Assembly: GCA_015063845.1 (NCBI GenBank)
Contig: SVTJ01000010.1
Location: 9,846 to 73,845 of the forward strand
Reading direction: 5' to 3'
From: Oscillospiraceae bacterium
GTDB lineage: Bacteria > Bacillota > Clostridia > Oscillospirales > CAG-272
DNA: 64,000 bases
The position numbers were made by a program, and so were the translations under genes. Below, in pieces: positions 26,444-44,223 of the stretch; the stretch's first letter is position 1; every line of letters starts with the position of its first letter. Below the pieces are notes generated by a model. It had not been told where the DNA came from and did no database searches. It saw nothing but the letters and a program-made list of their open reading frames with translations.

Positions 26444-27742
26444 TTATTTTCCGAGCATTTCCTTAACGATAGGATCTATCAAGCCATTAATGATCTGCGC
26501 GTATCTGGTATATCCTTGATCGTCGGGGTGTAGGCCGTCGGGGTACACAATATCAAAGCTCTTTTGTGTTTCCTTAAACATATTGAGGTGATCAAGTCCA
26601 AGCTTTGTAGCAGCAGCCTTTTGATATCCGCGAATATACGTTGACATTGCGTCTTCAAAAGAATTATACGCTATAGGGCAGTTGAGAAGCGCAATTCTCA
26701 TATTGCCGTTCTTAGCCCTAAGATCGTTTACTATTTCTTCGCAGCTATCTATAAAGGTTTTCTTGTAAGAAGCCGTACCAAAATCATGGCCCGCCTTAGT
26801 TGCTCGTGCTTCATTCGAATCGTTAGTTCCAAGCATTATAAGCGCAAGGTCTATGTTAGGAGCATTGTTCATACAAGGCTGATAGTAATTGCATGCTGTC
26901 CATGCGTGGTTGGTTTCAGGTACACCGTCATTGTTTTCGTCCCATTTAAAATCAGTTATCATCGTTCTTCCGCCAAGACCGTAATTGTAAACGACCATAT
27001 CCTTCCAAGCAATTCTCTGAAGAACTGCGGGATAAGCGACGATATCACGACGAATGCTGTCGGAAACGGAAGACGTATAACCCGAAGGCTTGCTTCCGTT
27101 CGTAAGGCTATCGCCGATACAACCTACAACAAGCATATTGGCCTTTGCTCTTACGAGATATCCGGAGTTCACGTTCGCCTGCTCGGCGTTTTGCGCGAGA
27201 ACGTTGGCAATGAAGTCCTCTGCCGCGTGCCACGTAGCTCCGTAGCTGTTACCGCAAATGACTATCTTTCCGTTGTTTTCTCTGAAAACGTAGTCCTTGA
27301 CCGAGCTGAATGAGCTCAGCAATGTGTCAACAAGACCTCTGTTGGTAGAGCCGATAATTATCTCCTTATTGCCCTTCGGCTGCTCTTCGTCTCTTACCAC
27401 CTTGACGGTAGCGCCGAAGTGTGTCTTTATAAGCGCGGCGAGATTTTCAGCCGTCTGCTTATCATACTCGGTGTCCTGAGTTACAAGAGAAGGGTACTGC
27501 GCATAAACCGCTCTGTCGGGATTATACGCATAAACTATGGTGTACTCCGAAATATCAGTTCCTTTGATCTTAAGCGACGTAGGAATGATAGGGGGAGCTT
27601 CCTCCTCGGAAGGAGGAGTGGTATTATTATCCGTATTGCCGTCCGCAGGAGCATCGGTGACGGGTGCTTCCGTTTTATCGCAAGCAACCGCCATCGACAT
27701 TGCCATAACAAGGACAAGCATAAGTGCTATAAGCCTTTTCAT
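26444..27742 (-). CDS. SGNH esterase lipoprotein, paralog 3
   Basis: Lipobox AVA-C; shared N-terminal module; GDSLT, GLGG, MLGTND, DGLHP. Confidence 0.88.
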   Translation of the reverse strand: MKRLIALMLVLVMAMSMAVACDKTEAPVTDAPADGNTDNNTTPPSEEEAPPIIPTSLKIKGTDISEYTIVYAYNPDRAVYAQYPSLVTQDTEYDKQTAENLAALIKTHFGATVKVVRDEEQPKGNKEIIIGSTNRGLVDTLLSSFSSVKDYVFRENNGKIVICGNSYGATWHAAEDFIANVLAQNAEQANVNSGYLVRAKANMLVVGCIGDSLTNGSKPSGYTSSVSDSIRRDIVAYPAVLQRIAWKDMVVYNYGLGGRTMITDFKWDENNDGVPETNHAWTACNYYQPCMNNAPNIDLALIMLGTNDSNEARATKAGHDFGTASYKKTFIDSCEEIVNDLRAKNGNMRIALLNCPIAYNSFEDAMSTYIRGYQKAAATKLGLDHLNMFKETQKSFDIVYPDGLHPDDQGYTRYAQIINGLIDPIVKEMLGK

Positions 27743-27756
27743 AATCACTGCCTCTT

Positions 27757-29004
27757 TTATTTAGCGAGTATATCTTTTACTATGGGGGCGATCAGACCGT
27801 CAACGATCTGTGCGTACTTTGTATATCCCGTATCCGAGGGATGAAGTCCGTCGGGATAATCTGTACTCGTTGTCTTGTTCATCGTTTCCTTATACATATC
27901 AAGGTGGTGAAGTCCGAGCTTCTGAGCCGCTGCCTTCTGATAAGGACGGATATAAAGCATCATATCCGCCTCAAAAGAATGATAGGATACGGGACAGTTG
28001 AGCAACGCGATCTCCATATTAGAATTCTTTGCCTTGAGCTCGTTTACTATCTTTTCGCAGCTATTAATAAACGTATTCTTATAAGCTGTCGTTCCAAAAT
28101 TGTAGCCTGCATCCTTTGCGCGGCTAGAATTGGAGTCGTTTGTTCCAAGCATTATAAGCGCAAGGTCTATATTAGCCGCGTTATCCATACAAGGCTGATA
28201 GTATGTAGAAGAGGTCCAGCCGTGGTTACCCGAACCGTCGGTCCAAACGAAATTCTCTATCATAGTTCTTCCGCCCTGACCGTAGTTGTATACGACCATA
28301 TCCTTCCACTCGATACGCTGAAGCACTGCGGGATACGAAACTATCGCTCTGCGTGTGCTGTTGTCGGTTATGGTAGTACCCTTCGAGCCGCTTCCGTTTG
28401 TAATGCTATCGCCGATGCAACCGACAACTACCATTTTTGCCTTTGCTGACAAAGAATAGCCTGCTTTTACCTCAGCGACTGCCGCGTTCTGCGTGAGAAG
28501 ATCCGCTATAAAATCCTCTGCCGCGTGCCAAGTAGCTCCGTAGCTCTTTCCGCAAATTACTATTTTTCCACCGTTTTCCTTAACAGCGTAGTCCTTGACC
28601 GATGTAAACGAGCCAAGCGTTACGTCAACAAGACCTCTGTTGGTCATGCCGATAATTATCTCCTTATCGCCCTTTGCCTGCTCCTCGTCTCTTGCCACCT
28701 TAACGGTAGCGCCGAAATTAGTCTTTATGAGAGCGGCAAGGTTTTCAGCAGTCTGCTTATCGTACTCGGTATCCTGAGTTACAAGCTCGGGATACTGCGC
28801 ATAAAACGCTCTGTCGGGATTATACGCATAAACTATTGTATATTCGGAAATATCCACGCCGTTTATCTTAGCCGCGGTGGGGGTTATTGGGGCTTGCTCT
28901 TCCTCTGCCGCAGGAGCATCAGGCTGCGGAGCTTCGCTATCCGCGCATGCTACCAAAGCAAACGAGAGAATAAGCGCGAGCAATATAGAAACAATTTTTT
29001 TCAT
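27757..29004 (-). CDS. SGNH esterase lipoprotein, paralog 2
   Basis: Lipobox LVA-C; GDSIT, GQGG, MLGTND, DGLHP. Confidence 0.88.
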   Translation of the reverse strand: MKKIVSILLALILSFALVACADSEAPQPDAPAAEEEQAPITPTAAKINGVDISEYTIVYAYNPDRAFYAQYPELVTQDTEYDKQTAENLAALIKTNFGATVKVARDEEQAKGDKEIIIGMTNRGLVDVTLGSFTSVKDYAVKENGGKIVICGKSYGATWHAAEDFIADLLTQNAAVAEVKAGYSLSAKAKMVVVGCIGDSITNGSGSKGTTITDNSTRRAIVSYPAVLQRIEWKDMVVYNYGQGGRTMIENFVWTDGSGNHGWTSSTYYQPCMDNAANIDLALIMLGTNDSNSSRAKDAGYNFGTTAYKNTFINSCEKIVNELKAKNSNMEIALLNCPVSYHSFEADMMLYIRPYQKAAAQKLGLHHLDMYKETMNKTTSTDYPDGLHPSDTGYTKYAQIVDGLIAPIVKDILAK

Positions 29005-29020
29005 TGTGTTCTATCTCCTT

Positions 29021-30325
29021 TTATTGTTTGCCAAGCATTTGGTTCACGATAGGAGTTATCATGGAATAAACTCCCTCTGCGTACTTTGCATATCCCTCGT
29101 CCGTAGGATGAAGGTCGTCGGGATAATCTGACTTCTGTGTATTATTCTTTGTATATGTATACATATCAAGAAGGTCAAGACCCAACTGCTGAGCTGCCTT
29201 TGCCTGATACTTACGAATGTATCCTTCTGCGGTAGGCTCAATATTCGAGCTGAATGCTATCGGGCAATTGAGAAGAGCTACGCGAACGTTAGCATTCTTT
29301 GCCTTAAGCTCGTTAACGATGTTTTTACAGCTGTTTATAAATGCCTGCTCATAAGCTCCGCCGAGCTCAAACGTGTATCCTGCCGCGGTACTTCTGGTCT
29401 TACTCGAGTCGTTTGTTCCAAGCATTATAAGAACAAGGTCGAGATTCTTTGCATTTGCCATGCACTTATCGTGCTCTTCGGTCTTTATCCAAGCGCGGTC
29501 ACCATCGAGCTTGCCGTCGCTATTATCGTCCCAGCAGTGGTTCTCGGTCATAGTTCTTCCGCCCTTACCGTAGTTGTAAACGACCATATCCTTCCAAGCC
29601 ATTCTCTGGAGAACTGCGGGATAAGGAACGATATCCGATCTCATACCGCTGTCAACCTTAGATTCATAGTTCTTTGTGGATTTTGTTCCGAACGTAAGGC
29701 TATCGCCTATACAGCCAACAACGATAATATTTGCCTTTGCCTTAAAGGAATATCCGCTCTCTATGTTTACGTCGTTGCTCGACATACCCATACAAAGCTC
29801 AACAAACTTCTCGGCAGCCTGCCATGTAGCGCCGTAAGAAGCGCCTACAATAATGAGCTTGCCGTTCTTCTCCTGAATGCACATATCCTTATCGTTTGCC
29901 GCATTGTAAGCAGCAAGCGCCTGACCCTCAAGGCCTCTGGCTGTATTTCCTATAATTATTTCCTTGTCAGTTGCCGCCTTACCGTCGGTAACGATGCTGA
30001 GCTTTGCGCCGAAATTCTTCTCTATAAGCGCAGCGAGATTTTGTGCTGTCTGCTTATCGTATTCGGTATCCTGCTTTACAAGTCCCTTTGCACTGCTGTT
30101 AACAATGCTATACTTGTATGCATCTGGGTTCTTTGCGTACACGATCTTATATTCGGAAATGTCAACACCGTTGATCTTCAGCGTCTTCTGCTGTACGGGG
30201 GTCTCCTCATTGGTCGTGTCTCCGTTAGCCGCGGGGGCTTCGGGAGCGGGCGTCTCTGTGTTGTTACAAGCAACAAGAGAGAGCATGAATATAAGTGCGA
30301 GTATAAGCGCAATTATTTTTTTCAT
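29021..30325 (-). CDS. SGNH esterase lipoprotein, paralog 1
   Basis: Lipobox LVA-C; GDSLT, GKGG, MLGTND, DDLHP. Confidence 0.88.
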   Translation of the reverse strand: MKKIIALILALIFMLSLVACNNTETPAPEAPAANGDTTNEETPVQQKTLKINGVDISEYKIVYAKNPDAYKYSIVNSSAKGLVKQDTEYDKQTAQNLAALIEKNFGAKLSIVTDGKAATDKEIIIGNTARGLEGQALAAYNAANDKDMCIQEKNGKLIIVGASYGATWQAAEKFVELCMGMSSNDVNIESGYSFKAKANIIVVGCIGDSLTFGTKSTKNYESKVDSGMRSDIVPYPAVLQRMAWKDMVVYNYGKGGRTMTENHCWDDNSDGKLDGDRAWIKTEEHDKCMANAKNLDLVLIMLGTNDSSKTRSTAAGYTFELGGAYEQAFINSCKNIVNELKAKNANVRVALLNCPIAFSSNIEPTAEGYIRKYQAKAAQQLGLDLLDMYTYTKNNTQKSDYPDDLHPTDEGYAKYAEGVYSMITPIVNQMLGKQ

Positions 30326-30345
30326 TTGTTTTGCTTCTCCTAACA

Positions 30346-31683
30346 TTAAATATTAAAATTCAGGTCGAGCCTGTATACTCTTCTTGGATTTGTTTTGCCA
30401 CTGCAATTAAAGCCTGCATAAAAAGCTCCGTCGTACCAAAACACGTTTTCTATCTCGTACGTAAGTGCTATTGTAAACTGCTTTACAAGCGTTCCCGTGG
30501 TCTTATCGTAAACTCGGATCACGTTGTTTTTCAACGACCCCGCGGGAGACTGGGAATAGTAGATGTAAACGTCATCACAGTCAACTCCCTGCGCCGTATG
30601 GCCAACTCCGCCACCGTCAAGGCGCTTTATAAGTCTGAGATTTTCATCAAGTATCAAAAGACCGTATCCGTTGACCTTATAGTTGCTCTCCGCGCAAGAA
30701 TAAGTATTGGATATCGGATCATACGCGATACCGAAGCAACCGATAGTGTGATTCGTAATGGTTCCCGTTCCTGTAACGGCAAGCGACTTAGGGCTGACAA
30801 ACGACACGTTGAAGGTGTTTATCGAGCACCACGCCACCACAAAGCGGTCATGCTTTGAGTCATACGTCATATCATTCGCGTGAGCTACGCTGATTATCGG
30901 GCCTGTCTTTACGACCTCATTGGTCTTGGGATCCACCTTGACCACACGTGTCTGGTCATTCGCATTATCAGTTCCGTCTGTTATAAGAAAATAGAAATAT
31001 TCTCCATCGGTGCAGCCGCCCTGTATAAGTGTAAGCGTTTTTTGTGAGTCTCCGTCACGCTGAGCCTCTAACTCCTGTACCAATGTGGGAGTAAGCACAT
31101 CGGATACTACGTTCTCTCCGAGTGAAAGATAAAGAGCCGCAGAGGGCGTTCCCTTTTGCGAATAACTAAAGTTCTTATCAAGCGTGAACAGCTTTCCCGA
31201 GTCCTTGGCTCCTATACAGTTATCAATAAAATACAGTATACCCTCAAATACGTAGTCGTCGTTGTATCCCTTGATAACTATCTTAGTTCCCTTGGTGCTG
31301 ATTATGAATGATGTCTTGGGGCAGCTGATCTCGGCGGTTTCCGCTCTGTTGGTCTCTCCGAGCAATATCTCATAGTCCTCGTTTGTTGCCGCCGTGCCGT
31401 CATTTATCACACCGACCGTACAGCCCGTTTTTTCAGAAATAGCATTCTTTAGCTTTTCAGCAAACACACCGTACATTGCCTTTGCGTCCTTGGGATAGAC
31501 AATGGTGAACTGCGTAGTAAGAAGCTCAAAAGGATTTACCTGAGGTACATCTGCGCTCTCTTCTTGCTTGGGAGCGTCGCCCGTCGGCTCTGTTCCGTCT
31601 GCTTGTATCGTATCGTCCTTATCGCATGCCGCAAACGAAAGAAGCATCAACAATGCCAATATTAACGACAAAACTTTCTTCAT
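30346..31683 (-). CDS. Lipoprotein: shared N-terminal module plus putative beta-propeller domain
   Basis: Lipobox FAA-C; QGGCTDG, HANDMTYD, QGVDCD, EIEN. Confidence 0.8.
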   Translation of the reverse strand: MKKVLSLILALLMLLSFAACDKDDTIQADGTEPTGDAPKQEESADVPQVNPFELLTTQFTIVYPKDAKAMYGVFAEKLKNAISEKTGCTVGVINDGTAATNEDYEILLGETNRAETAEISCPKTSFIISTKGTKIVIKGYNDDYVFEGILYFIDNCIGAKDSGKLFTLDKNFSYSQKGTPSAALYLSLGENVVSDVLTPTLVQELEAQRDGDSQKTLTLIQGGCTDGEYFYFLITDGTDNANDQTRVVKVDPKTNEVVKTGPIISVAHANDMTYDSKHDRFVVAWCSINTFNVSFVSPKSLAVTGTGTITNHTIGCFGIAYDPISNTYSCAESNYKVNGYGLLILDENLRLIKRLDGGGVGHTAQGVDCDDVYIYYSQSPAGSLKNNVIRVYDKTTGTLVKQFTIALTYEIENVFWYDGAFYAGFNCSGKTNPRRVYRLDLNFNI

Positions 31684-31708
31684 ACGCAGTCCTCCTTATA
31701 AATCAATC

Positions 31709-33199
31709 TCAGTTTTTCTCTACCAGCGTCATCTCATATACGTCGCCCGTTTTTTCGCGACTGTTATCGAAGGTTATAATAAACTTATCGTCCTTTATAA
31801 ACAGATTTGCGCCGGAAGCGACCTTGGGTATCGCGATCTTCTTGACAAAATCGCCGTCCCAATCGTACACCCAAAGCCAATTATGTCTTGTATTGGATTG
31901 CAGGAAATAGATATACTTGTTGTCGCACTCCATTCCGTGTCTTACGTATCCGTCAAGACCGCGAAGTCTCTTTACGTATCCCCAGTCCTTATCGAACACG
32001 TCAGAGTCGTATCCGCTGTTTCCAACGATAAATCTCTCGTTCTTCTTGTCGTAGGCAATACCGTACTGAATCACGCGTATTTCAAGCTCTCTTGTCTCCA
32101 CGACCTCAAGGGTGTCCGCATTTACAAACGATGCGTTCTTATCGCCGTGCGTTACAACAAGCAGATTTTTGTTGGGGTCATACGCGATGTCCGTTGCTTT
32201 TCCTAAGCTGAGCGCCTCGGACTTAGCGACCACCGTCCAGCTCTGCGTATCGACCTTTACAAGCTTTGTTCTCGACTTATCCGCATCGACTCTTTCTGCT
32301 ATCGAGTAGTAAGCGTACGTTCCGTCGCTTGCTCCTCCGCGGATAGCGCAAGTCTCAAAACCCTCAATTGCCGTGGGCAAAACCAGCTTTTTCTCAAGTA
32401 TAGCCTCAAGCTCACGGGATCCTGCGTCTCTGATGATCTCGGGAATAGTTTTGCTCTTCTTGGGTTTTCTCGTAAGCGTCATCTCATAGATGTCGCCCGT
32501 CTGATCTTTGAAATTATTGAATGCCGCGATAAACTTATCACCTCTTATAAAGAGGTTCTCGCTCTCGCCTACCATAGGCACGGTGAACTTCTTAAGATAA
32601 TTACCGTCCCAATCGTATACCCATATCCAATTGTTGCGCTTGCCCGTATGGAAGAAGTAAATAAACTCGTCGTCACACTCCATTCCCTGCTTGGTATATC
32701 CGTCCTGACCTTCATAGGTCTTGATAAGCTCAAAATCGGAATTTGTTATACCGATATCGTAGCAAAGGCTCTTTCCAATGGCGTACTGATCTCTTTTTGC
32801 GTTGTATGCCATACTGTACTGTCCGCCCGTGGTAAGCTCACGTACCTCGAGCTCCTCAAGAGTGTCAGGATCAACGAAGGAAATTCTCTTGTTGCAGTGA
32901 CAAACCACCACAACTCCTCTCTTAGAATCGTAGGTCACGTCATTTGCGTGCGCCCACTTAAAGCCCTGTCTTTGCGCGACTATTTCCCAGGTTTCGAGGT
33001 CTATCTTGTACATTCTGCTAAGCTCCTCGCCTGTGTTGCCGCCCTCGTTGATTATATAGTAGGCGTACTTTCCGTTAGTTCCGCCGCCCTGCATATAGCA
33101 CTTTTTGTAGCCCTCAACGAACGTGGGAATGCTGAGTTTCTTTTCGATAGTCACCTCTATCTCATCGCCGTCAAGCTCTCTTATGATGTCACTTATCAT
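31709..33199 (-). CDS. Protein with two tandem putative beta-propeller domains (no signal peptide)
   Basis: Internal duplication; first copy has intact QG/HAND/QG/ESE motifs, second is degenerate. Confidence 0.8.
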   Translation of the reverse strand: MISDIIRELDGDEIEVTIEKKLSIPTFVEGYKKCYMQGGGTNGKYAYYIINEGGNTGEELSRMYKIDLETWEIVAQRQGFKWAHANDVTYDSKRGVVVVCHCNKRISFVDPDTLEELEVRELTTGGQYSMAYNAKRDQYAIGKSLCYDIGITNSDFELIKTYEGQDGYTKQGMECDDEFIYFFHTGKRNNWIWVYDWDGNYLKKFTVPMVGESENLFIRGDKFIAAFNNFKDQTGDIYEMTLTRKPKKSKTIPEIIRDAGSRELEAILEKKLVLPTAIEGFETCAIRGGASDGTYAYYSIAERVDADKSRTKLVKVDTQSWTVVAKSEALSLGKATDIAYDPNKNLLVVTHGDKNASFVNADTLEVVETRELEIRVIQYGIAYDKKNERFIVGNSGYDSDVFDKDWGYVKRLRGLDGYVRHGMECDNKYIYFLQSNTRHNWLWVYDWDGDFVKKIAIPKVASGANLFIKDDKFIITFDNSREKTGDVYEMTLVEKN

Positions 33200-33212
33200 T
33201 TTTGTTCCTCTT

Positions 33213-33968
33213 TTATTTCTTAGGTGTAACCTTCATTACGTAGATATGTGCCGTTCTATCCTTATGCACGTTGAATGAGCCTATAAGCTCGTCTCCTCTA
33301 AAGAACAGGTGCTCGCTCTCGCCTACCATCGGCACTTTTATCTTACCGTAATACTTGCCGTCCCAATCGTAGACAAATATCCAGTTATAGCGACAGCCTG
33401 TCTGGAAGAAGTAGATAAAATCGTCGTCACATTCAATGCCCTGCTTTACGTGACCGTCCTCACCCTCAATGTCGTAAAGAGGATTGAAATCCTCGTCAAG
33501 AACTGCAAGGTCGTACGTTGCGGTCTTACCAACGACATACTGATTTCTCTTTGCGTTATACGCCATTGCAAAATGTCTTGTGGAGATACTCTTTACCTCG
33601 ATAAGCTTAAGAGTATCGGGATCTATAATGGACATGTCGTGTGCGTCCACGTTACAATGAGAAACGAGCAATCTATGATGCTTTGCGTCATAAGCTACGT
33701 CGTTTGCGTGGCACATATAAAAATCATGCGCCTCTTCAACTATTTCCCACTTATCAAGATCTACTTTTATTATTTTGCTTCTGACTTCCGCGGTAGAGCC
33801 GTGCTCGTTCATTACGAAATAGCCGTACTTTCCGTCTGTTACGCCGCCCTGCAAGCCCATGGTTTTGTAGTGTTCGTCCACGCTGTTAAGTGTCAGCTTA
33901 GGCTCAAGAGTGACCTCAAGTCCGTCACAACCGTATCTCTTAATAAGTTCACTAACTGCTGTACTCAT
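33213..33968 (-). CDS. Single putative beta-propeller protein (no signal peptide)
   Basis: QGGVTDG, HANDVAYD, QGIECD, ESEH; start after GAGG. Confidence 0.8.
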   Translation of the reverse strand: MSTAVSELIKRYGCDGLEVTLEPKLTLNSVDEHYKTMGLQGGVTDGKYGYFVMNEHGSTAEVRSKIIKVDLDKWEIVEEAHDFYMCHANDVAYDAKHHRLLVSHCNVDAHDMSIIDPDTLKLIEVKSISTRHFAMAYNAKRNQYVVGKTATYDLAVLDEDFNPLYDIEGEDGHVKQGIECDDDFIYFFQTGCRYNWIFVYDWDGKYYGKIKVPMVGESEHLFFRGDELIGSFNVHKDRTAHIYVMKVTPKK

Positions 33969-34070
33969 AATATTTTCCTCGTTAAAATTTTTGCTTTCTT
34001 TGTACAAAAGGGCAGCAAAAAACCGTTTCAGTTTTCTGCCGCCCTCCATTCTTTTTATATAAGAATTAAA

Positions 34071-35540
34071 TCAGAATGACAACTGATAAAGAAGTCTCTC
34101 TCCGTTGGAGCAGTTAAATCCTGCCCAGAAGCTGTTGTCATACCAGAATATGTGCTCGATCTCATCAGGAAGATCGATAGTAAGTGTGCAAATGTAATTG
34201 CCGTCATAGTCATACACGTTGACTATATTCATCACGTCTATAACACCGTATGTTTCAGACGTCTTAGCGTTGTTCGGCGATGCGGTATAATAGATGTACT
34301 TGGAATCACAGTGAATACCCTGAGATACGTATCCCATGCTTATTCCCTTGAATTCCTTTACCTTTTGATACGCAGTCGCTGTTTTAGCGTTCTTTGCAAT
34401 GATTATAGGATAACCGTTTATTGCATATTTGCTGCCCGAGAATACCATGCGGTTTCCAACCTCATCATAGTCTATCGCGAAGAATGCCTGCGAGAAAGAG
34501 GGAGAGGATGTAACCTTAAGAGTATTCATATCAATGTACGATACTGTTGTAGCGTCAACCGAGCACCAAGCAACAACGAGTCTGTTGTACTTGGAATCAT
34601 ACGTAAGGTCATTGGAGTGAGCAACGCTTATGATCGGACCTATCTGAACTATTTCCATAGTTTTGGGATCCATCTTTATAACGCGGGTCTCATCTGCCAC
34701 TCCGTATGCCGCATCAGCCGCTCCGTCTTTGGGGTTGGTAAGAAGGAAGTAGAAATACTTTCCGTCGGTACAACCGCCCTGAATATTGGCAATGGTTCTC
34801 GCGTCTTTGCTATCAAAATACTGACCGAACTTATATACCTGCTTAGTGGTGAGAGCTATTGTCTTACCTGCAAAGGTCTTACCTGTGGCTTTAAAAGCAT
34901 CTGCATCACTGGAAGAAGAAAACAGCTGGAACGTCTTATTCTTCTTCTCAAGTCTGTCGATATATGCGAATGCCGCATTCTCGGGAGACTCGGTATAAGA
35001 GTAGTCTGTGTTGATATTGAGAAGAGTTCCCGCGGAAGAACTACCGATGCAATTATCTATGAAATAGAACAATCCCATCGTTGTGTAGTACTGGCTCGAG
35101 CCCTTGATGACGACCTTTTTACCTACTACCTTGATAACAAAGCTATTTTCAGGGCACTCAGTAAGTGCGGTCTCAAGACGGTTGGTGCCACCAAGGAGTA
35201 TCTCATAATTGTCGTTTTTGATCTCAGTAGAGGTGTTACCCTTCTCGAAATCGGTTGCGGCGGAAAGAGTTACTCCCGTCTTGTTGGCGATAGTCTTGAT
35301 AAGAGAAGGAATGTGTTTGTTATAATACGCTTCTTCCGCATCAGGACAAATGATCTTTATCGCCGTGTTATTTATGTCGGCATACAACCCCGGGGGGAGC
35401 TGCTCGACAGTTCTGTCCGTATCGGTCGTTCCGTCTGCCGCAGGTGCATCGGGGGTGATGGTATCCTGAGTACAGGATACCATCATAACAAGCACCAGAA
35501 TAAGGCAAACGATCGCCGAAAATAGTTTCTTGTTTTTCAT
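34071..35540 (-). CDS. Lipoprotein: shared N-terminal module plus putative beta-propeller domain
   Basis: Lipobox MVS-C; QGGCTDG, HSNDLTYD, QGIHCD, EIEH. Confidence 0.8.
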   Translation of the reverse strand: MKNKKLFSAIVCLILVLVMMVSCTQDTITPDAPAADGTTDTDRTVEQLPPGLYADINNTAIKIICPDAEEAYYNKHIPSLIKTIANKTGVTLSAATDFEKGNTSTEIKNDNYEILLGGTNRLETALTECPENSFVIKVVGKKVVIKGSSQYYTTMGLFYFIDNCIGSSSAGTLLNINTDYSYTESPENAAFAYIDRLEKKNKTFQLFSSSSDADAFKATGKTFAGKTIALTTKQVYKFGQYFDSKDARTIANIQGGCTDGKYFYFLLTNPKDGAADAAYGVADETRVIKMDPKTMEIVQIGPIISVAHSNDLTYDSKYNRLVVAWCSVDATTVSYIDMNTLKVTSSPSFSQAFFAIDYDEVGNRMVFSGSKYAINGYPIIIAKNAKTATAYQKVKEFKGISMGYVSQGIHCDSKYIYYTASPNNAKTSETYGVIDVMNIVNVYDYDGNYICTLTIDLPDEIEHIFWYDNSFWAGFNCSNGERLLYQLSF

Positions 35541-39370: not shown

Positions 39371-39484
39371 TTTGGTGTTCTCCTTTTTTGTTGATTTATA
39401 TTCAAACTCCACGGCAATTCCGACCTTGCCGCAGAACCTAAATCAAGTTTTGGAAAGTGCGCCGTATCGGCGCGGTGGATATCC

Positions 39485-39513
39485 TCCCGCGCCTCGAAAG
39501 CGAGGCGCGGGAG
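39485..39513. terminator. Strong GC hairpin (terminator or mRNA stabiliser)
   Basis: CTCCCGCGCCTCG-AAAG-CGAGGCGCGGGAG; no clear minus-strand U tract. Confidence 0.45.
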
Positions 39514-39526
39514 TTGATTTTAGAAA

Positions 39527-40369
39527 TTACTTGACAATGAGCTGAGCGATGTAGTCAGTGCCTGCATCCCCATTGAATGCCGCGTAGAACGCGCCATCGT
39601 ACCAGAAAATACTTTCTATTTCGTCAACATTGTCAACGTAAAGCAGGCAAACTCGTTCACCACCCCAGGTATAGACCGTGATGATGTTCTTTGCCGCATT
39701 TGTTATTCCCGACTGGGAGTAATAGATATAGTGCGAGTCACAGAATATACCTTGCGCGGTATATCCAAGCCTTACGGTTTCAAACTCACTTGTGCAGGTC
39801 TTAAGCTCTCCGTCGTAGACCATCAGCGCAAAGTTATACTTTGACTGACCTGTCTTAGTAACGACGTATCTGTCTCCGATCTCGCTATAAGCCATACTGA
39901 AAAACGACTTGCTGAGAGTCTTCTGGGACACCGCGTTGAGCGTAGACGGATCTATGAGCGTATACGTAGTACCCATATGAATAGCGTAGAGATAGCCCGT
40001 GTTGGGGTTGTAGGTCAGATCGTTAGCGTGTCCCACGTTAACTATCGGGCCTATCATATCAACCGTCCATGTTTTGGGGTCTATTCTCACAACGCGTGTT
40101 TCATCGTCGTTTCCGTCGGTTTTGAGTGCGTAAACGTAGGTTCCGTCAGTGCAAGAGCCCTGAAGAGACTTCATTGCGCTTCCATCCGCCTGCGTATACT
40201 CACTGTCGACAAACGAGAACTTCGTATCGGTCGTCATATTGACTACCTTGAAGCTTGTCGTCTCGCCCGTTTCGCTGGGCTTCTGCGTGGTATTATCCCC
40301 CGTAGAATCCCAGTCGTAAACGGTAAATGTTTGTTCCTGCGTAGTTTGAGCTTGTGCTAATTCAGACAG
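39527..40369 (-). CDS. Putative beta-propeller domain; frame open up to the TGA of the upstream gene (first ATG at 40237)
   Basis: QGSCTDG, GHANDLTYN, QGIFCD, EIES; 44 sense codons lie between the TGA at 40370-40372 and the ATG. Confidence 0.7.
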   Translation of the reverse strand: MSELAQAQTTQEQTFTVYDWDSTGDNTTQKPSETGETTSFKVVNMTTDTKFSFVDSEYTQADGSAMKSLQGSCTDGTYVYALKTDGNDDETRVVRIDPKTWTVDMIGPIVNVGHANDLTYNPNTGYLYAIHMGTTYTLIDPSTLNAVSQKTLSKSFFSMAYSEIGDRYVVTKTGQSKYNFALMVYDGELKTCTSEFETVRLGYTAQGIFCDSHYIYYSQSGITNAAKNIITVYTWGGERVCLLYVDNVDEIESIFWYDGAFYAAFNGDAGTDYIAQLIVK

Positions 40370-43300
40370 TCATTGAGCAGAGGAGGTTACGATATCCTGT
40401 GCGCATGCTGCCGTTGCATCTATTGTGTAAACGTCAGTGTACTGAATGTGGCCACTGGTCGTCTTTACGTATGCAACTACGTAGAAGTCAACGTCGTTAA
40501 GGTAGTAGTCAGCCTTAAGGTTTGTCAGGTCAAGAACTGCAACAAGCTTGCCGTCCTCGGGAGACCAAGTTGTCTGGTCAGCCTGTCTAACCTTTGTGTA
40601 AAGCTTGTCGGTCGTGCTGGAGGGCGCGCCGTTCTCAACGATGTTCGCAGCAGTGTCAAGATCCTTTGCTATATAGAAGCCAACCTCTGCAAACTCGTCG
40701 TTACCTGCAACTGCCTCGTCAACTACGAAGAGAAGTCTGAGGTCTGTGGAGGTAGAATCGTCAGTTGTACCTGCCTTGATCTGGAAATACTTATCTGTAC
40801 CGAAGTGCTTATCGCCTACGAATACTGTCTGCTCGAAGCCTTCATTTGCAACTATGACCTCTGCCGTATAGTTCTTAACAACAGCCCAAACTGCCTCGGA
40901 AATGCCAAGCTTTGCGTAAGAATCGCTTACGTCGGTCGTGGGAGTCGTAATATTATCAGCGTTCTTGTTGAAGGTACCTCTCTGATATGAGAAAGAGGTA
41001 TCGGTTGAATCAAGGAAGTCATACTTATATGCTCTGATGTCGGTATCGGGAGCTATCCAAATACCGCCGAGTATATTATAGCTATTATTGGAGAATCTGC
41101 TGCTTGTGCTAACTGTAGGAGTTGTCTGAGAGTTCTTGTGTCCTACAATACCGTATCCGCTGGTTGTTTGTTCCGTAGTCTTAACGAATACACCGCCATA
41201 CACTTCCACGTTACCAAGATAACCGTTAGTATTAGAGGTACCTGCCGAGATAGCAGCTCCTGCACCAACTACGAACGTACCGCCGTAGATCTTGAGCGCT
41301 GTGCCATCCTGACCCGCATATGTAGCGGAAACTACAAACGTCTCAGCTGCGATGGTCGTTGCATATCCGTGTCTGATCATCTGAGCATTCTGGTGGGCGC
41401 TATCCATCGTGAATGTACCGCCGTAGATATTAACGTCACATCCGCGAGCCTCAAGAAGTATTTGCTCGCCGGAGTTCTTACGCATGAAGTCACCGCCGTA
41501 AATATTAACGTCAACCTCAAGTCCACGAAGAGTGATCAGCGTATCAGAAGATGTAGTGGTAAGGTTTCCGAACTTACCGCCATAAATGTTTATGTCGGTA
41601 TCGATCGTGTTGTTAGCCTCGGTATTGATATATATGGGTTTATTAGAGCCGGAGAAATCAGCGTCGTAAATATTGATATCAAACGTTCCGCCTGTAATAC
41701 CGGCTGTTGTGTTGAAGCCTGTTGTCGTCTTGAAAGTACCGCCATATACATTTGCGTTCACGGTTCCGCCCGTTATAGTCTTCATGAAATCGAATGCAGT
41801 CGTTCCATTGAACGTTCCGCCGTAGATGTTAGCCGTTGTCGTTCCCGCGGTCGTCGCATCGACAATGAGAAGACTCTTTGTTAAGTTAAACGTACCGTCA
41901 GATATGTCAGCCTTTACCGTTCCTCCGGTGCTTGCATTTACATAGATAAGGCTCTCGGTCAAGTTAAACGTACCGTTCTTTATGGTGATCTCTGTGCTAT
42001 CGCTGTTATCCTGCGCCTTAATATACGCAAACGTGGTAGCGTTAACCTCTCCGCCGTTGAACGTGAACTTTACGGGAGTGCTGTATGTATCTGCACCGTT
42101 GGTGTTGTACATAATGTACGTAGCCCTGAGAACAGAAGTACCGCTTACAGTAATGTTAGCAGCCTTTACAGGATAGTTACCGTTATCGATGTTATACATA
42201 AACATCTTAGAAGTGCCACCACTAAGCTCAACTGTACTGTTGTCTATCTTTATGTTTACTGTACGGGTGTTTTTAGACTGTCTGTTCGCAAACAGGACAC
42301 TCTCAGTAGTTATAACACTACTTCCGTTGAGAATGTTTATGTTATACGTAGACATGCTTCCAAAACTAGCTCCCTTCGTTCCCGAAGGTGCAAACATACC
42401 TCTGGTGTTCAAAGGAGAAGTATCTGTGGAAACATCCGTAGATGCGGTATTGGATACCGACATATAAGTGTTGTCAAGTGTTACCGTATAAGTTGCGGGG
42501 GGAGTAGCTCCCAGACCGATAAGGTTGTTGAAGAAGTCGTTTCTGACTGCTACGCTAGAGCTGTTAACGCCTACGGTCTGACCGAGGTTCATAACGTTCC
42601 TCGTGCCGTTAGCATCGGTAGTCTCGCAATCCTTAAGGTATACGTGCAAGCTCTTAGCCGTGTAGTAAAGCTTGGTACTGAAGAGCTTCGCAAGATCCTG
42701 ATACGTGTTGTCCGTTGTAGAGGTTGCGTGCAATCTCCAACCGTCAAGAGTAAGCTTGACGTCGGTCGTATTCTTGCTTGCATACACGAGGTAGTCAGGC
42801 TTGTTTGCCGTAAAGGTGTTGTTAGGCTTCATGGTAACGTCCAAAGAGGAGTTTGCTCCGGACGAATGAACAAGTCTCGCGGTTGTCTTTGAGCCTTCGT
42901 TTATAATAGTACAACCGTCGAAGGAAAGCTTAATGTTGTCATATTCACATCCAAAAGCCATAATATGCGACGCTGAACCGTGCTTTATAGTTGTGCCAAC
43001 AAAGCTAAGATCCATATGAGCATAGGTAGTTGTGGTCGAATCGGTTGAAGTTCCCCAAGTTCTTACAAGATACTGACCGGAAGCAGTTGCATCCATTTCT
43101 GAATTAGTTACTGTTCCCTTAAGTGTTGCATATATGCTCGAGCTTGAGAAGCCTTGTATATGGAACATCTGTGCGCCTGTGCTCTTGATATATACGTTGT
43201 CGAGATTAACCTCAACAGTTCCTGCTTTAGAAACTACGCCCTCAGAACTAGCTTGCGTAGTACTGTAGAACAGCTTTCCTGAGCCGGTCGACGTAAAGGA

Positions 43301-44209
43301 TGTTCTCTCGTCACCCGTTGCACCTACAGGGCTGGTCGCATTAACAACTACCTTACCGTTACCGCTGTTAAGGAACATAGCACCGTTGCCAACTGTAAGC
43401 TTAGAGCCGTTCGTTACGTTTACGTTAATAACAGTCGTAGCATTATTATTTATCAAGTTAGCAGCTCCGGTATTGATCGTAGCACCGTCAAAGTTTATGG
43501 TGTACTCTTTTCCCTTATAAGTAGCGTTAGGGGCAGCCCAACCCAAGATCCAGGACTTATCATCTTCCGTTCCTCTCTTGAAGCTACACTCACCCTTAAG
43601 GGTTACAGCTCTCGCTATTTCGCTTCTCATTGCGATCGCTGCTGCCGTGTATTTCGTTTCGCTTCCGTTCACATACTCAGGCATCGTTACATTCACGCCA
43701 TCAAGAGTAAGTGCACAGGCTCCACCCATACCGAACAGGGCATTGTTAGCGCCATGGGTATCAGCTACAACAAAATCTACGTTTTCGATCGTGAGATCGT
43801 CACCACCGCCTATCAAACACCAAGCACTCTTAAGAGTTCCTCCGGAAACGTTGATAGTAATTGTGGGATTTCCACTGGTAGCATCGTATGCCTTTATCGT
43901 GGCATTTGCTCTCCAGTTATCGGGAAGAGTTGCTGTCTCCACGATATCATTCAAAATGTAGATCGTGTAATAATCGTCATCATTATCCGTTCCCATTTTG
44001 TATTCGTTAAAAGCTGCCAAAAGCGTGGGGAAAAGCTTTCCGTCTGCTTCTGTGACACCGTCGGGGTATGCACTACCAATGTAAACAGCTATCTGATTGT
44101 CATCTTCAAAAGATGCAGCCGTAGCAGAGAATACACCCGTAGGGATCATGAGTGCGAGCATAACAAACGCAAGTGCAATGCTCAGTACTCTCTTAAATGA
44201 CTTTTTCAT
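40370..44209 (-). CDS. Large secreted Thr/Asn/Gly-rich beta-helix-like surface protein (1279 aa)
   Basis: GGAGG SD, Sec signal MKKSFKRVLSIALAFVMLALMIP...ATA-A, many (V/I)NIYGG(T/D/K)F repeats. Confidence 0.85.
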   Translation of the reverse strand: MKKSFKRVLSIALAFVMLALMIPTGVFSATAASFEDDNQIAVYIGSAYPDGVTEADGKLFPTLLAAFNEYKMGTDNDDDYYTIYILNDIVETATLPDNWRANATIKAYDATSGNPTITINVSGGTLKSAWCLIGGGDDLTIENVDFVVADTHGANNALFGMGGACALTLDGVNVTMPEYVNGSETKYTAAAIAMRSEIARAVTLKGECSFKRGTEDDKSWILGWAAPNATYKGKEYTINFDGATINTGAANLINNNATTVINVNVTNGSKLTVGNGAMFLNSGNGKVVVNATSPVGATGDERTSFTSTGSGKLFYSTTQASSEGVVSKAGTVEVNLDNVYIKSTGAQMFHIQGFSSSSIYATLKGTVTNSEMDATASGQYLVRTWGTSTDSTTTTYAHMDLSFVGTTIKHGSASHIMAFGCEYDNIKLSFDGCTIINEGSKTTARLVHSSGANSSLDVTMKPNNTFTANKPDYLVYASKNTTDVKLTLDGWRLHATSTTDNTYQDLAKLFSTKLYYTAKSLHVYLKDCETTDANGTRNVMNLGQTVGVNSSSVAVRNDFFNNLIGLGATPPATYTVTLDNTYMSVSNTASTDVSTDTSPLNTRGMFAPSGTKGASFGSMSTYNINILNGSSVITTESVLFANRQSKNTRTVNIKIDNSTVELSGGTSKMFMYNIDNGNYPVKAANITVSGTSVLRATYIMYNTNGADTYSTPVKFTFNGGEVNATTFAYIKAQDNSDSTEITIKNGTFNLTESLIYVNASTGGTVKADISDGTFNLTKSLLIVDATTAGTTTANIYGGTFNGTTAFDFMKTITGGTVNANVYGGTFKTTTGFNTTAGITGGTFDINIYDADFSGSNKPIYINTEANNTIDTDINIYGGKFGNLTTTSSDTLITLRGLEVDVNIYGGDFMRKNSGEQILLEARGCDVNIYGGTFTMDSAHQNAQMIRHGYATTIAAETFVVSATYAGQDGTALKIYGGTFVVGAGAAISAGTSNTNGYLGNVEVYGGVFVKTTEQTTSGYGIVGHKNSQTTPTVSTSSRFSNNSYNILGGIWIAPDTDIRAYKYDFLDSTDTSFSYQRGTFNKNADNITTPTTDVSDSYAKLGISEAVWAVVKNYTAEVIVANEGFEQTVFVGDKHFGTDKYFQIKAGTTDDSTSTDLRLLFVVDEAVAGNDEFAEVGFYIAKDLDTAANIVENGAPSSTTDKLYTKVRQADQTTWSPEDGKLVAVLDLTNLKADYYLNDVDFYVVAYVKTTSGHIQYTDVYTIDATAACAQDIVTSSAQ

Positions 44210-44223
44210 TTTTAAAGTCCTCC

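Follow-up and report, generated by a model that had tools for sequence, protein, structure and literature searches.

The stretch of DNA analyzed here, referred to at its full length of 64 000 nucleotides (nt) as the window, comes from an Oscillospiraceae bacterium (GenBank assembly GCA_015063845.1, contig SVTJ01000010.1, positions 9,846 to 73,845 of the forward strand). It contains an open reading frame (ORF) for a giant secreted repeat protein of 1279 amino acids (aa), and the TGA that ends this ORF is followed in the same frame by a coding stretch for a five-bladed β-propeller (Table 1). The start codon of the giant gene is preceded by GGAGG at 44223–44219, and the gene product begins with a signal-peptide-like stretch, contains ..IYGGTF.. 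repeats in large number and closes with a domain whose tail is rich in Ala and Ser (...DIVTSSAQ). The preliminary description of this DNA had reported a single in-frame TGA with 280 open codons behind it, and our reading of the ORFs bore this out: the frame contains one TGA only and stays open up to the TAA, the earliest ATG, GTG or TTG after the stop is the ATG at codon 45 of the post-stop frame, and readthrough would give a product of 1279 + 1 + 280 = 1560 aa. No Pfam family exceeded its threshold in either the giant ORF or the propeller ORF. The genome to which the window belongs (G000) is 1.88 megabases long and 96.7% complete, and the locus is chromosomal, with mnmG and rsmG close by. The sequencing runs with the locus DNA (11 listed, all on record as DNA) come from animal faeces or from gut metagenomes. 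One public assembly splits the giant protein: P0170 (539 aa) and P0168 (740 aa) were called on the same contig, and the sequence is frameshifted where they meet, at about residues 519–540 (window about 42590–42650).

Table 1. Features of the giant-protein and propeller locus, in coordinates of the window
Feature	Position	Strand	Remark
Giant secreted repeat protein, 1279 aa	40373..44209	minus	ORF call; start ATG 44209
In-frame TGA stop of the giant ORF	40372-40370	minus	Followed by C (40369)
First 16 post-stop codons (LSELAQAQTTQEQTFT), linker-like	40322..40369	minus	AlphaFold pLDDT 54 at residues 1–10
Codons 17–44 (VYDWD...KVVN)	40238..40321	minus	Conserved as protein with ortholog P0174; no ATG, GTG or TTG between the TGA and here
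ATG (Met45), sole canonical start after the TGA	40235..40237	minus	AGGT at 40248-40245, 7 nt upstream
Five-bladed β-propeller, 236 aa as publicly annotated (P0010)	39530..40237	minus	TAA at 39529-39527; no signal peptide
Perfect palindromic stem, 13 base pairs, 11 of them G-C	39484..39513		Directly 3' of the propeller ORF
Four genes with five paralogous propeller copies	30346..35540	minus	Downstream of the propeller ORF
Lipoproteins of 445 and 489 aa, one C-terminal propeller copy each	within 30346..35540	minus	
Proteins of 496 aa (two copies) and 278 aa (one copy), both without signal peptide	within 30346..35540	minus	

The TGA was found unchanged in the contigs of three runs that span it. 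Contigs from the runs X1 (7842 nt) and X6 (2430 nt), both possibly the source of the window, span the stop with 0 differences, and a contig from X7, a run of another study, covers 40304–40856 at 99% identity with four differences, none of them in the TGA; a contig from X8 covers 40170–40356 and ends short of the stop. The 90% cluster of the giant protein has 10 members, seven of which, from several sources, are full length at 1279 aa, and none is longer. An ortholog of 1366 aa, P0172, has the same kind of signal peptide and is 36–42% identical to the giant protein. When the last 250 residues of the giant protein were compared with P0172, the alignment (36% identity) extended to residue 249 of 250 and to residue 1364 of 1366, so that the stop of P0172 falls one codon beyond that of the giant protein. 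Since P0172 and P0011, an ortholog of the propeller, each list an 11 816-nt contig, they are very probably neighbors that share this arrangement of two ORFs. Because P0172 stops only one codon away, a recent nonsense mutation is contradicted; the alternatives first entertained for this site, a nonsense mutation or an assembly error, are thus at odds with the independent contigs, the seven 1279-aa variants and the stop position of P0172. We conclude that the TGA is a genuine, old and evolutionarily kept stop.

UGA is also an ordinary stop codon in this genome. Release factor RF2 is present (486.8 bits, compared with a cut-off of 370), TGA terminates 310 of 1037 gene-like ORFs (30%), and ORFs of 1300 codons are present under translation table 11. 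Neither a tRNA with the anticodon TCA nor a tRNA-Sec was found among the 40 tRNAs that ARAGORN detected in the genome, selA was not found there and selB was matched below its cut-off only; the elements expected for selenocysteine (tRNA-Sec, SelA, SelB and a selenocysteine insertion hairpin after the UGA) were therefore not recovered at this locus and in this genome. Nor does the genome look like one in which UGA is a sense codon (tables 4 and 25), given the presence of RF2 and the frequency of TGA at gene ends. The RF2 gene (G000 contig C12, 241822–242871) matches family positions 4–353 and reads as a single uninterrupted frame of 379 aa. A programmed +1 frameshift is present in the RF2 gene of many bacteria, and the gene of this genome seems to be without it.

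We then considered how unusual the open frame behind the stop is. In this genome, 60 of 1055 open stretches of at least 300 codons are followed in frame by at least 280 further open codons, so that openness as such is not rare. A search for TGA-split genes on raw open frames was swamped by shadow frames, and gene-like ORFs were used instead: 116 of 1037 are followed by at least 100 open codons, and 9 of these 116 have at least 24 start-free codons. Judged from the printed translations, the window case is the only one of the nine that does not read like junk, and the genome-wide search yielded no second credible TGA-split gene among the gene-like ORFs. The unusual feature of the locus is accordingly not the sharing of a frame but 44 start-free codons that read as protein.

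The conservation of these codons was assessed by comparison with the called N-termini of homologs. Codons 17–44 align locally with the N-terminus of P0174 at a score of 69, compared with a shuffle mean of 20.1 (standard deviation 4.4), and none of 2000 shuffles reached 69; by our count, 15 of 29 columns are identical, which is near the identity over the whole protein (56%). The linker alignment with the lipoprotein homolog P0013 is weak, its score being reached by 71 of 2000 shuffles. In the AlphaFold model of the post-stop protein (input alignment of 65 homologs; predicted local distance difference test score, pLDDT, 90.5; predicted template-modelling score, pTM, 0.90), strands occupy post-stop residues 11–16 and 37–52 (block pLDDT 83, 85 and 95), and Met45 falls in the middle of the second. 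As modelled strands lie upstream of Met45, the fold is predicted to begin before it. The G+C content of the spacer, 48.5%, compares with 35.8% (standard deviation 7.8) for 281 intergenic-like segments, 5.3% of which reach 48.5%. These results suggest that codons 17–44 are, or very recently were, translated in the lineage of the window. Since they are conserved and have no initiation codon of their own, the complete module would be made only if the UGA is read as sense. The sequence AGGA at 40338–40335 stands 7 nt ahead of codon 15 (TTT), the codon aligned with the called Met of P0174, and looks like a relic of a ribosome-binding site.

The module itself is identified as a five-bladed propeller, of a type known from the tips of phage tail spikes, by the confident model, by a strand list of about 20 strands in five blades and by matches to the solved structures 3nol, 5efv and 6v8i. 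The best solved matches in Foldseek were the glutaminyl cyclase 3nol and the platform domain of the receptor-binding proteins (RBPs) of the phages phi11 and 80alpha, and the best viral matches were tail spikes, a pectate lyase fragment and the GA-1 neck appendage protein; the ESM Atlas lists tail-spike clusters with a pectate-lyase-like part for the propeller. The Pfam family PF21311 (Phage_RBD_prop) scored 13.6 bits, under its cut-off of 23.7. The propeller family comprises 786 representatives at E ≤ 0.001, and the residues that are invariant in it are all kept within the 280 open codons; in this family, the module is functional. Strain differences in these codons number four, three of which lie in two synonymous codon changes (one synonymous difference is at V42) and one of which changes Ser to Ala; they are too few for a test of selection. 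According to a crude heuristic, 38 of 47 homologs of stand-alone size have a signal-peptide-like N-terminus, and the nine without one include P0010 and P0011.

Four orthologs of the propeller were found at 54–59% identity (P0011, P0173, P0174 and P0175; 52–57% for P0011), and they differ in where their N-termini were called. P0174 and P0011 start with a Met 3 residues and 1 residue, respectively, before the conserved Tyr18, P0173 starts at the position of Met45, and the start of P0175 was placed about 20 residues further in. With lipoprotein homologs as the root, the tree unites the window sequence with P0173 and P0175 (support 92/91), and P0174 and P0011 diverge before them (96/94). Codons 17–44 would be expected to have decayed if a start codon near residue 18 had been lost once and long ago; because no decay is seen, the alternative is a set of independent, recent losses. 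The stop position is kept within one codon in P0172, and the extension is conserved at the protein level in four orthologs.

Relatives in which the giant-protein part continues into a further domain were also found. When the read-through protein was written with an X at the stop, P0039, a single ORF of 956 aa, gave one BLASTP alignment that runs across the junction (residues 732–1550, E 2e-29). In this homolog and in P0162 (L015), one ORF runs on into a further C-terminal domain. The last 400 residues of the giant protein have a homolog in 1 of 71 other genomes of the genus (G064), where 1536 codons are open and the same ORF includes a different C-terminal domain with an HGHDDH motif, putatively metallo-β-lactamase-like. 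Taken with P0039, this homolog suggests that members of the giant-protein family commonly carry a tip domain. In searches for orthologs and their DNA, longer proteins included no close fused ortholog (33% identity for the best of 9 matches), the 280-aa sequence matched a single locus among genome contigs (37% identity), metagenome contigs gave no relative of the junction protein and 23 loci with alignment A4 (best 37%), the patterns used there being too narrow for P0173 and P0174, and viral contigs gave two weak loci with alignment A5. No ortholog of P0011 was found in the genus (71 other genomes; best 45% identity) or the family (400 genomes), and none of P0175 in the family (252 genomes at least 95% complete) or the order (400 genomes).

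We further analyzed the context in which the stop would be read. TGA followed by C is the rarest TGA context in the genome (48 of 310; T is the commonest next base, with 131 of 310), and among these 48 ORFs the giant gene has the longest open frame behind its stop. In Escherichia coli, UGA-C terminates poorly and occurs at the prfB frameshift site. The only tRNA-Trp(CCA) found in the genome (G000 contig C12, 204948–205023) has C27 and U43 unpaired, that is, a 4-base-pair (4-bp) anticodon stem. In its CCA anticodon, the C.U at 27:43, the 7-nt loop and the unchanged A9 and G24 (neither A9C nor G24A), it resembles the reported Blastocrithidia-like 4-bp-stem tRNA-Trp. The top pair of the anticodon stem is unpaired at all 23 loci examined (L051–L073), which comprise that of G000, 21 same-genus loci and one locus from another family (G486), with C27.U43 in 22 and C27.A43 in L073; at seven of seven loci from other families of the order, the stem has 5 bp. 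According to PMC13092985, 4-bp-stem tRNAs make up ~2% of bacterial tRNA-Trp genes, an over-expressed C27A variant increased UGA readthrough ~2.5-fold in E. coli, and the significance of this capacity at native expression levels remains to be assessed. That paper ties the 4-bp-stem tRNA to UGA reassignment or lower UGA usage and names no specific gene served by it, whereas UGA is a common stop here (30%). TGA is described as the leakiest stop in E. coli, mostly read as Trp, in PMC11126739.

Nothing resembling a terminator was found between the two ORFs, and a strong hairpin follows the propeller ORF. Across the genome, the next in-frame stop lies nearer after TGA than after TAA genes (median 7 vs 12 codons; 41.6% vs 31.6% within 5 codons); such nearer back-up stops may fit some leakiness, or they could be compositional.

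These observations bring us to the reading that we tentatively place first, namely that leaky or programmed readthrough of the UGA makes a minor isoform bearing the propeller as a tip. Under this reading, most ribosomes would terminate at the TGA and yield the 1279-aa secreted protein, and a minority would decode UGA-C with the near-cognate 4-bp-stem tRNA-Trp(CCA), inserting Trp; the product would be a minor 1560-aa isoform, exported by means of the signal peptide of the giant protein and carrying the propeller at its C-terminus. The points in favor are the shared frame and missing start, the coding conservation, the fold, the fused homolog, the age of the stop, the TGA-C context, the tRNA, the absence of a signal peptide from the propeller, the G+C content and the lack of a terminator-like site between the two ORFs. 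The preliminary description had proposed readthrough or hopping that would give two isoforms; the first part stands as viable, in view of the start-less conserved codons, the P0039 fusion, UGA-C and the 4-bp-stem tRNA-Trp, and the second, which drew on a repeated common hexamer, does not. That readthrough proceeds at a useful rate and that the fusion is a functional product are both steps that we infer.

Several results weigh against this reading. No stimulatory RNA structure was found around the stop: the 41-nt fold has –2.5 kcal/mol (z +1.08) and the 111-nt fold z +1.36, with 190 of 200 shuffles folding at least as well as the latter, so that the weak hairpin once noted at the stop is not significant. 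The linker alignment with P0011 alone is not significant, its score being reached by 300 of 2000 shuffles, and codon usage in the 44 codons gives an ambiguous score, which lies at the 11th percentile of genes and within the top 11% of stop-free intergenic windows. One promoter-like match, against 1.4 expected, is present at 40320–40292. The strain variants of the giant protein differ by only 1–2 residues, and retention of the TGA among them is accordingly little evidence of selection. The X7 contig keeps the TGA, diverges 66 nt after it and has an in-frame TGA two codons further, which makes the extension seem dispensable or replaced in that strain. Finally, the ATG at 40237 with its AGGT could start a shorter product, signal-less propeller paralogs adjoin at 33213–34049 and 31709–33199, the 236-aa form is predicted to fold alone (ESM Atlas pTM 0.91), and the Met of P0174 and P0011 near Tyr18, together with the AGGA 7 nt before codon 15 of the window, agrees with descent from a separate cistron that has lost its start in this genome.

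With regard to the X7 contig (1221 nt), the 668 nt past 40304 are unlike the window, and the 30 letters after the breakpoint were not found in the genome of the window. The junction is either a strain-level structural variant with its breakpoint in the post-stop linker or an assembly chimera. X7 and X8 cover 14 and 6 of 30 bins, respectively, a coverage that does not by itself show the propeller to be absent from X7.

The reading that we rank next, and regard as rather unlikely, is that the locus consists of two ordinary cistrons. In this case, a 236-aa signal-less propeller would be translated from the ATG at 40237 by way of the AGGT, the shared frame would be coincidental, as the frequency of in-frame neighbors in this genome (60 of 1055) would allow, and codons 17–44 would be left over from a longer ancestral N-terminus. 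This ATG is the sole canonical start, the public annotation P0010 begins there and is identical on 17 contigs, and Met45 is conserved in the orthologs as well as in P0039, the fused homolog. P0174 and P0011 also keep the Lys-Val codons in which the AGGT lies, and P0173 was called from the same Met. Seven other signal-less homologs begin 7–57 residues before the QG motif, compared with 25 residues in the window ORF. However, codons 17–44 would then be untranslated, and yet they are free of stops and conserved with P0174 like the rest of the protein; if the tree is right, the loss of the start must moreover be recent and independent of that in P0173 and P0175. Initiation at Met45 would cut the modelled strand 37–52 in half, and beyond the ortholog group, the closest homologs are domains at the C-terminus of lipoproteins. 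The ribosome-binding site is weak as well: as the preliminary description stated, the downstream ATG has a weak Shine-Dalgarno sequence and no signal peptide, with AGGT here compared with GGAGG at the giant gene. Two cistrons would also require TGA-C, the same frame and a stop-free spacer to coincide (48/1037 × 1/3 × ~0.4, the last factor being a rough guess). Initiation at 40237 behind a non-conserved spacer had been named beforehand as a finding that would speak against recoding; initiation there is conceivable, given the AGGT and the predicted fold.

It is also conceivable, although we consider it improbable, that the propeller ORF is a young, start-less remnant of an ancestral separate gene, which would have lost its start codon in this species, would no longer yield useful amounts of product and would look intact because little time has passed. 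There is no canonical start before the conserved N-terminal part, from 22 codons past the stop the X7 strain seems to be without the propeller or to have another sequence in its place, the giant gene is frameshifted in one assembly near residues 520–540 (P0168 and P0170), and the many paralogs at the locus could make one copy redundant. A remnant, on the other hand, would hardly be expected to retain 280 open codons, 54–59% identity to four orthologs, the family-invariant residues and an identical 236-aa product on 17 contigs; the four strain differences, three of them in two synonymous codons, point the same way but are too few to test selection.

Far less probable is translational bypassing, in which the ribosome would take off from the CAA before the TGA and land on a CAA 27 nt (or 18 nt) downstream. 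The recurrence of GCTCAA 27 nt downstream, as first described, was confirmed (40373–40378 and 40346–40351), in frame and with the stop directly after the take-off codon. This hexamer is common, with 71 matches in the window against 41.7 expected, and matched codons are trivial in an Ala/Gln-rich stretch. Phage T4 gene 60 is the model case of bypassing; the locus shares with it the matched take-off and landing codons and the stop, but not the stable stem-loop at the take-off site (–2.5 kcal/mol, z +1.08). Furthermore, no ortholog sequence covers codons 1–14, the stretch to be skipped, and since the frame is the same on both sides, readthrough needs no hop. An assembly or sequencing error, selenocysteine or a sense TGA, in favor of which there is nothing beyond the in-frame TGA itself, is hardly credible in view of the X1, X6 and X7 contigs and the seven 1279-aa variants, and of a genome with RF2 over its cut-off, 310 of 1037 ORFs ending in TGA, no selA, no tRNA-Sec and no anticodon TCA.

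Readthrough of the UGA can be compared with known systems. In phage Qβ, the UGA of the coat gene is read by tRNA-Trp in a few percent of ribosomes, and A1 is the resulting minor, C-terminally extended coat protein. On the readthrough reading, the locus would resemble this case in that one leaky UGA closes the gene of an abundant structural protein, in an in-frame extension whose conserved beginning has no start, in the expected major short and minor long forms, and in the Trp expected at the UGA. It differs in that Qβ is an RNA phage, whereas the gene considered here lies in the chromosome of a gut bacterium, has a complete five-bladed propeller as its extension and offers an internal ATG as another route; here we infer the readthrough itself. 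Insertion of Trp at UGA in E. coli is reported in PMC11126739.

The propeller fold is likewise found in phage spikes and RBPs (phi11 RBP 5efv, 80alpha baseplate 6v8i, BFVD A0A8S5V1P7 and GA-1 Q9FZW3), with template-modelling (TM) scores by query of 0.62–0.67. As in phage tail spikes, where a pectate-lyase-like part is combined with a propeller, a long repeat or spike part comes first and the propeller after it. Unlike the phage proteins, to which sequence identity is 11–18%, the locus has its two parts in separate ORFs, and mnmG and rsmG mark the locus as chromosomal. The best structural matches by target coverage are the plant and bacterial-type glutaminyl cyclases (3nol, 2iwa and 3mbr; TM by target 0.64–0.69), at 8–10% identity, which is a resemblance of fold only. 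P0039, a metagenome protein of 25% identity, shows the domain order of the read-through product, with the repeats, the last domain and then the propeller; its linker is about 44 residues shorter and it has no stop at the junction.

If readthrough does take place, one may go a step further, to a view that we hold to be rather doubtful: a selected, conserved and deliberately leaky UGA-C in a chromosomal gene of a genus with 4-bp-stem tRNA-Trp, such that a small, perhaps condition-dependent share of the protein would carry a lectin-like tip that can be exchanged between strains or species; such a protein would be the cellular equivalent of Qβ A1. The exchangeable tips would then include, with the same degree of doubt, the metallo-β-lactamase-like domain in G064 and another sequence in X7. 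To our knowledge, nearly all documented cases of functional stop-codon readthrough in bacteria come from phages, and our literature searches gave no bacterial chromosomal case. The locus offers a concrete test case, in that a conserved stop, a conserved start-less coding extension and a 4-bp-stem tRNA-Trp are present in one genome. If readthrough is confirmed, one gene of a gut bacterium would display two forms of a surface protein, and the 4-bp-stem tRNA-Trp would gain a cellular role; if translation of the propeller begins at Met45, or if its ORF is a remnant, we would be dealing with an ordinary gene pair with a lost start, which would illustrate that in-frame neighbors can mimic recoding.

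Further propeller and surface-protein genes lie downstream. The palindromic stem at 39484–39513, which has no U-run when read on the minus strand, is followed by a second short G+C stem and then by another surface-protein gene, whose start lies near 39373. On the minus strand between 26444 and 30346, three paralogous lipoproteins share an N-terminal domain and a GDSL/SGNH hydrolase domain. Two of the four propeller genes reuse the same kind of lipoprotein N-terminal domain, which gives the whole of 26444–35540 the character of a modular run, and a shorter syntenic version of this run is found in G064 (contig C18, L024).

With regard to the tRNA-Trp gene, its 3' 45 nt (positions 32–76) recur at 98–100% identity on many contigs of some same-genus genomes, namely G020 (nine contigs listed, eight at 100% and one at 98%), G024 and G010. 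This pattern is as expected of attachment sites of integrative elements, which these copies may represent. One of the copies shares a contig (G020:C81) with a propeller homolog.

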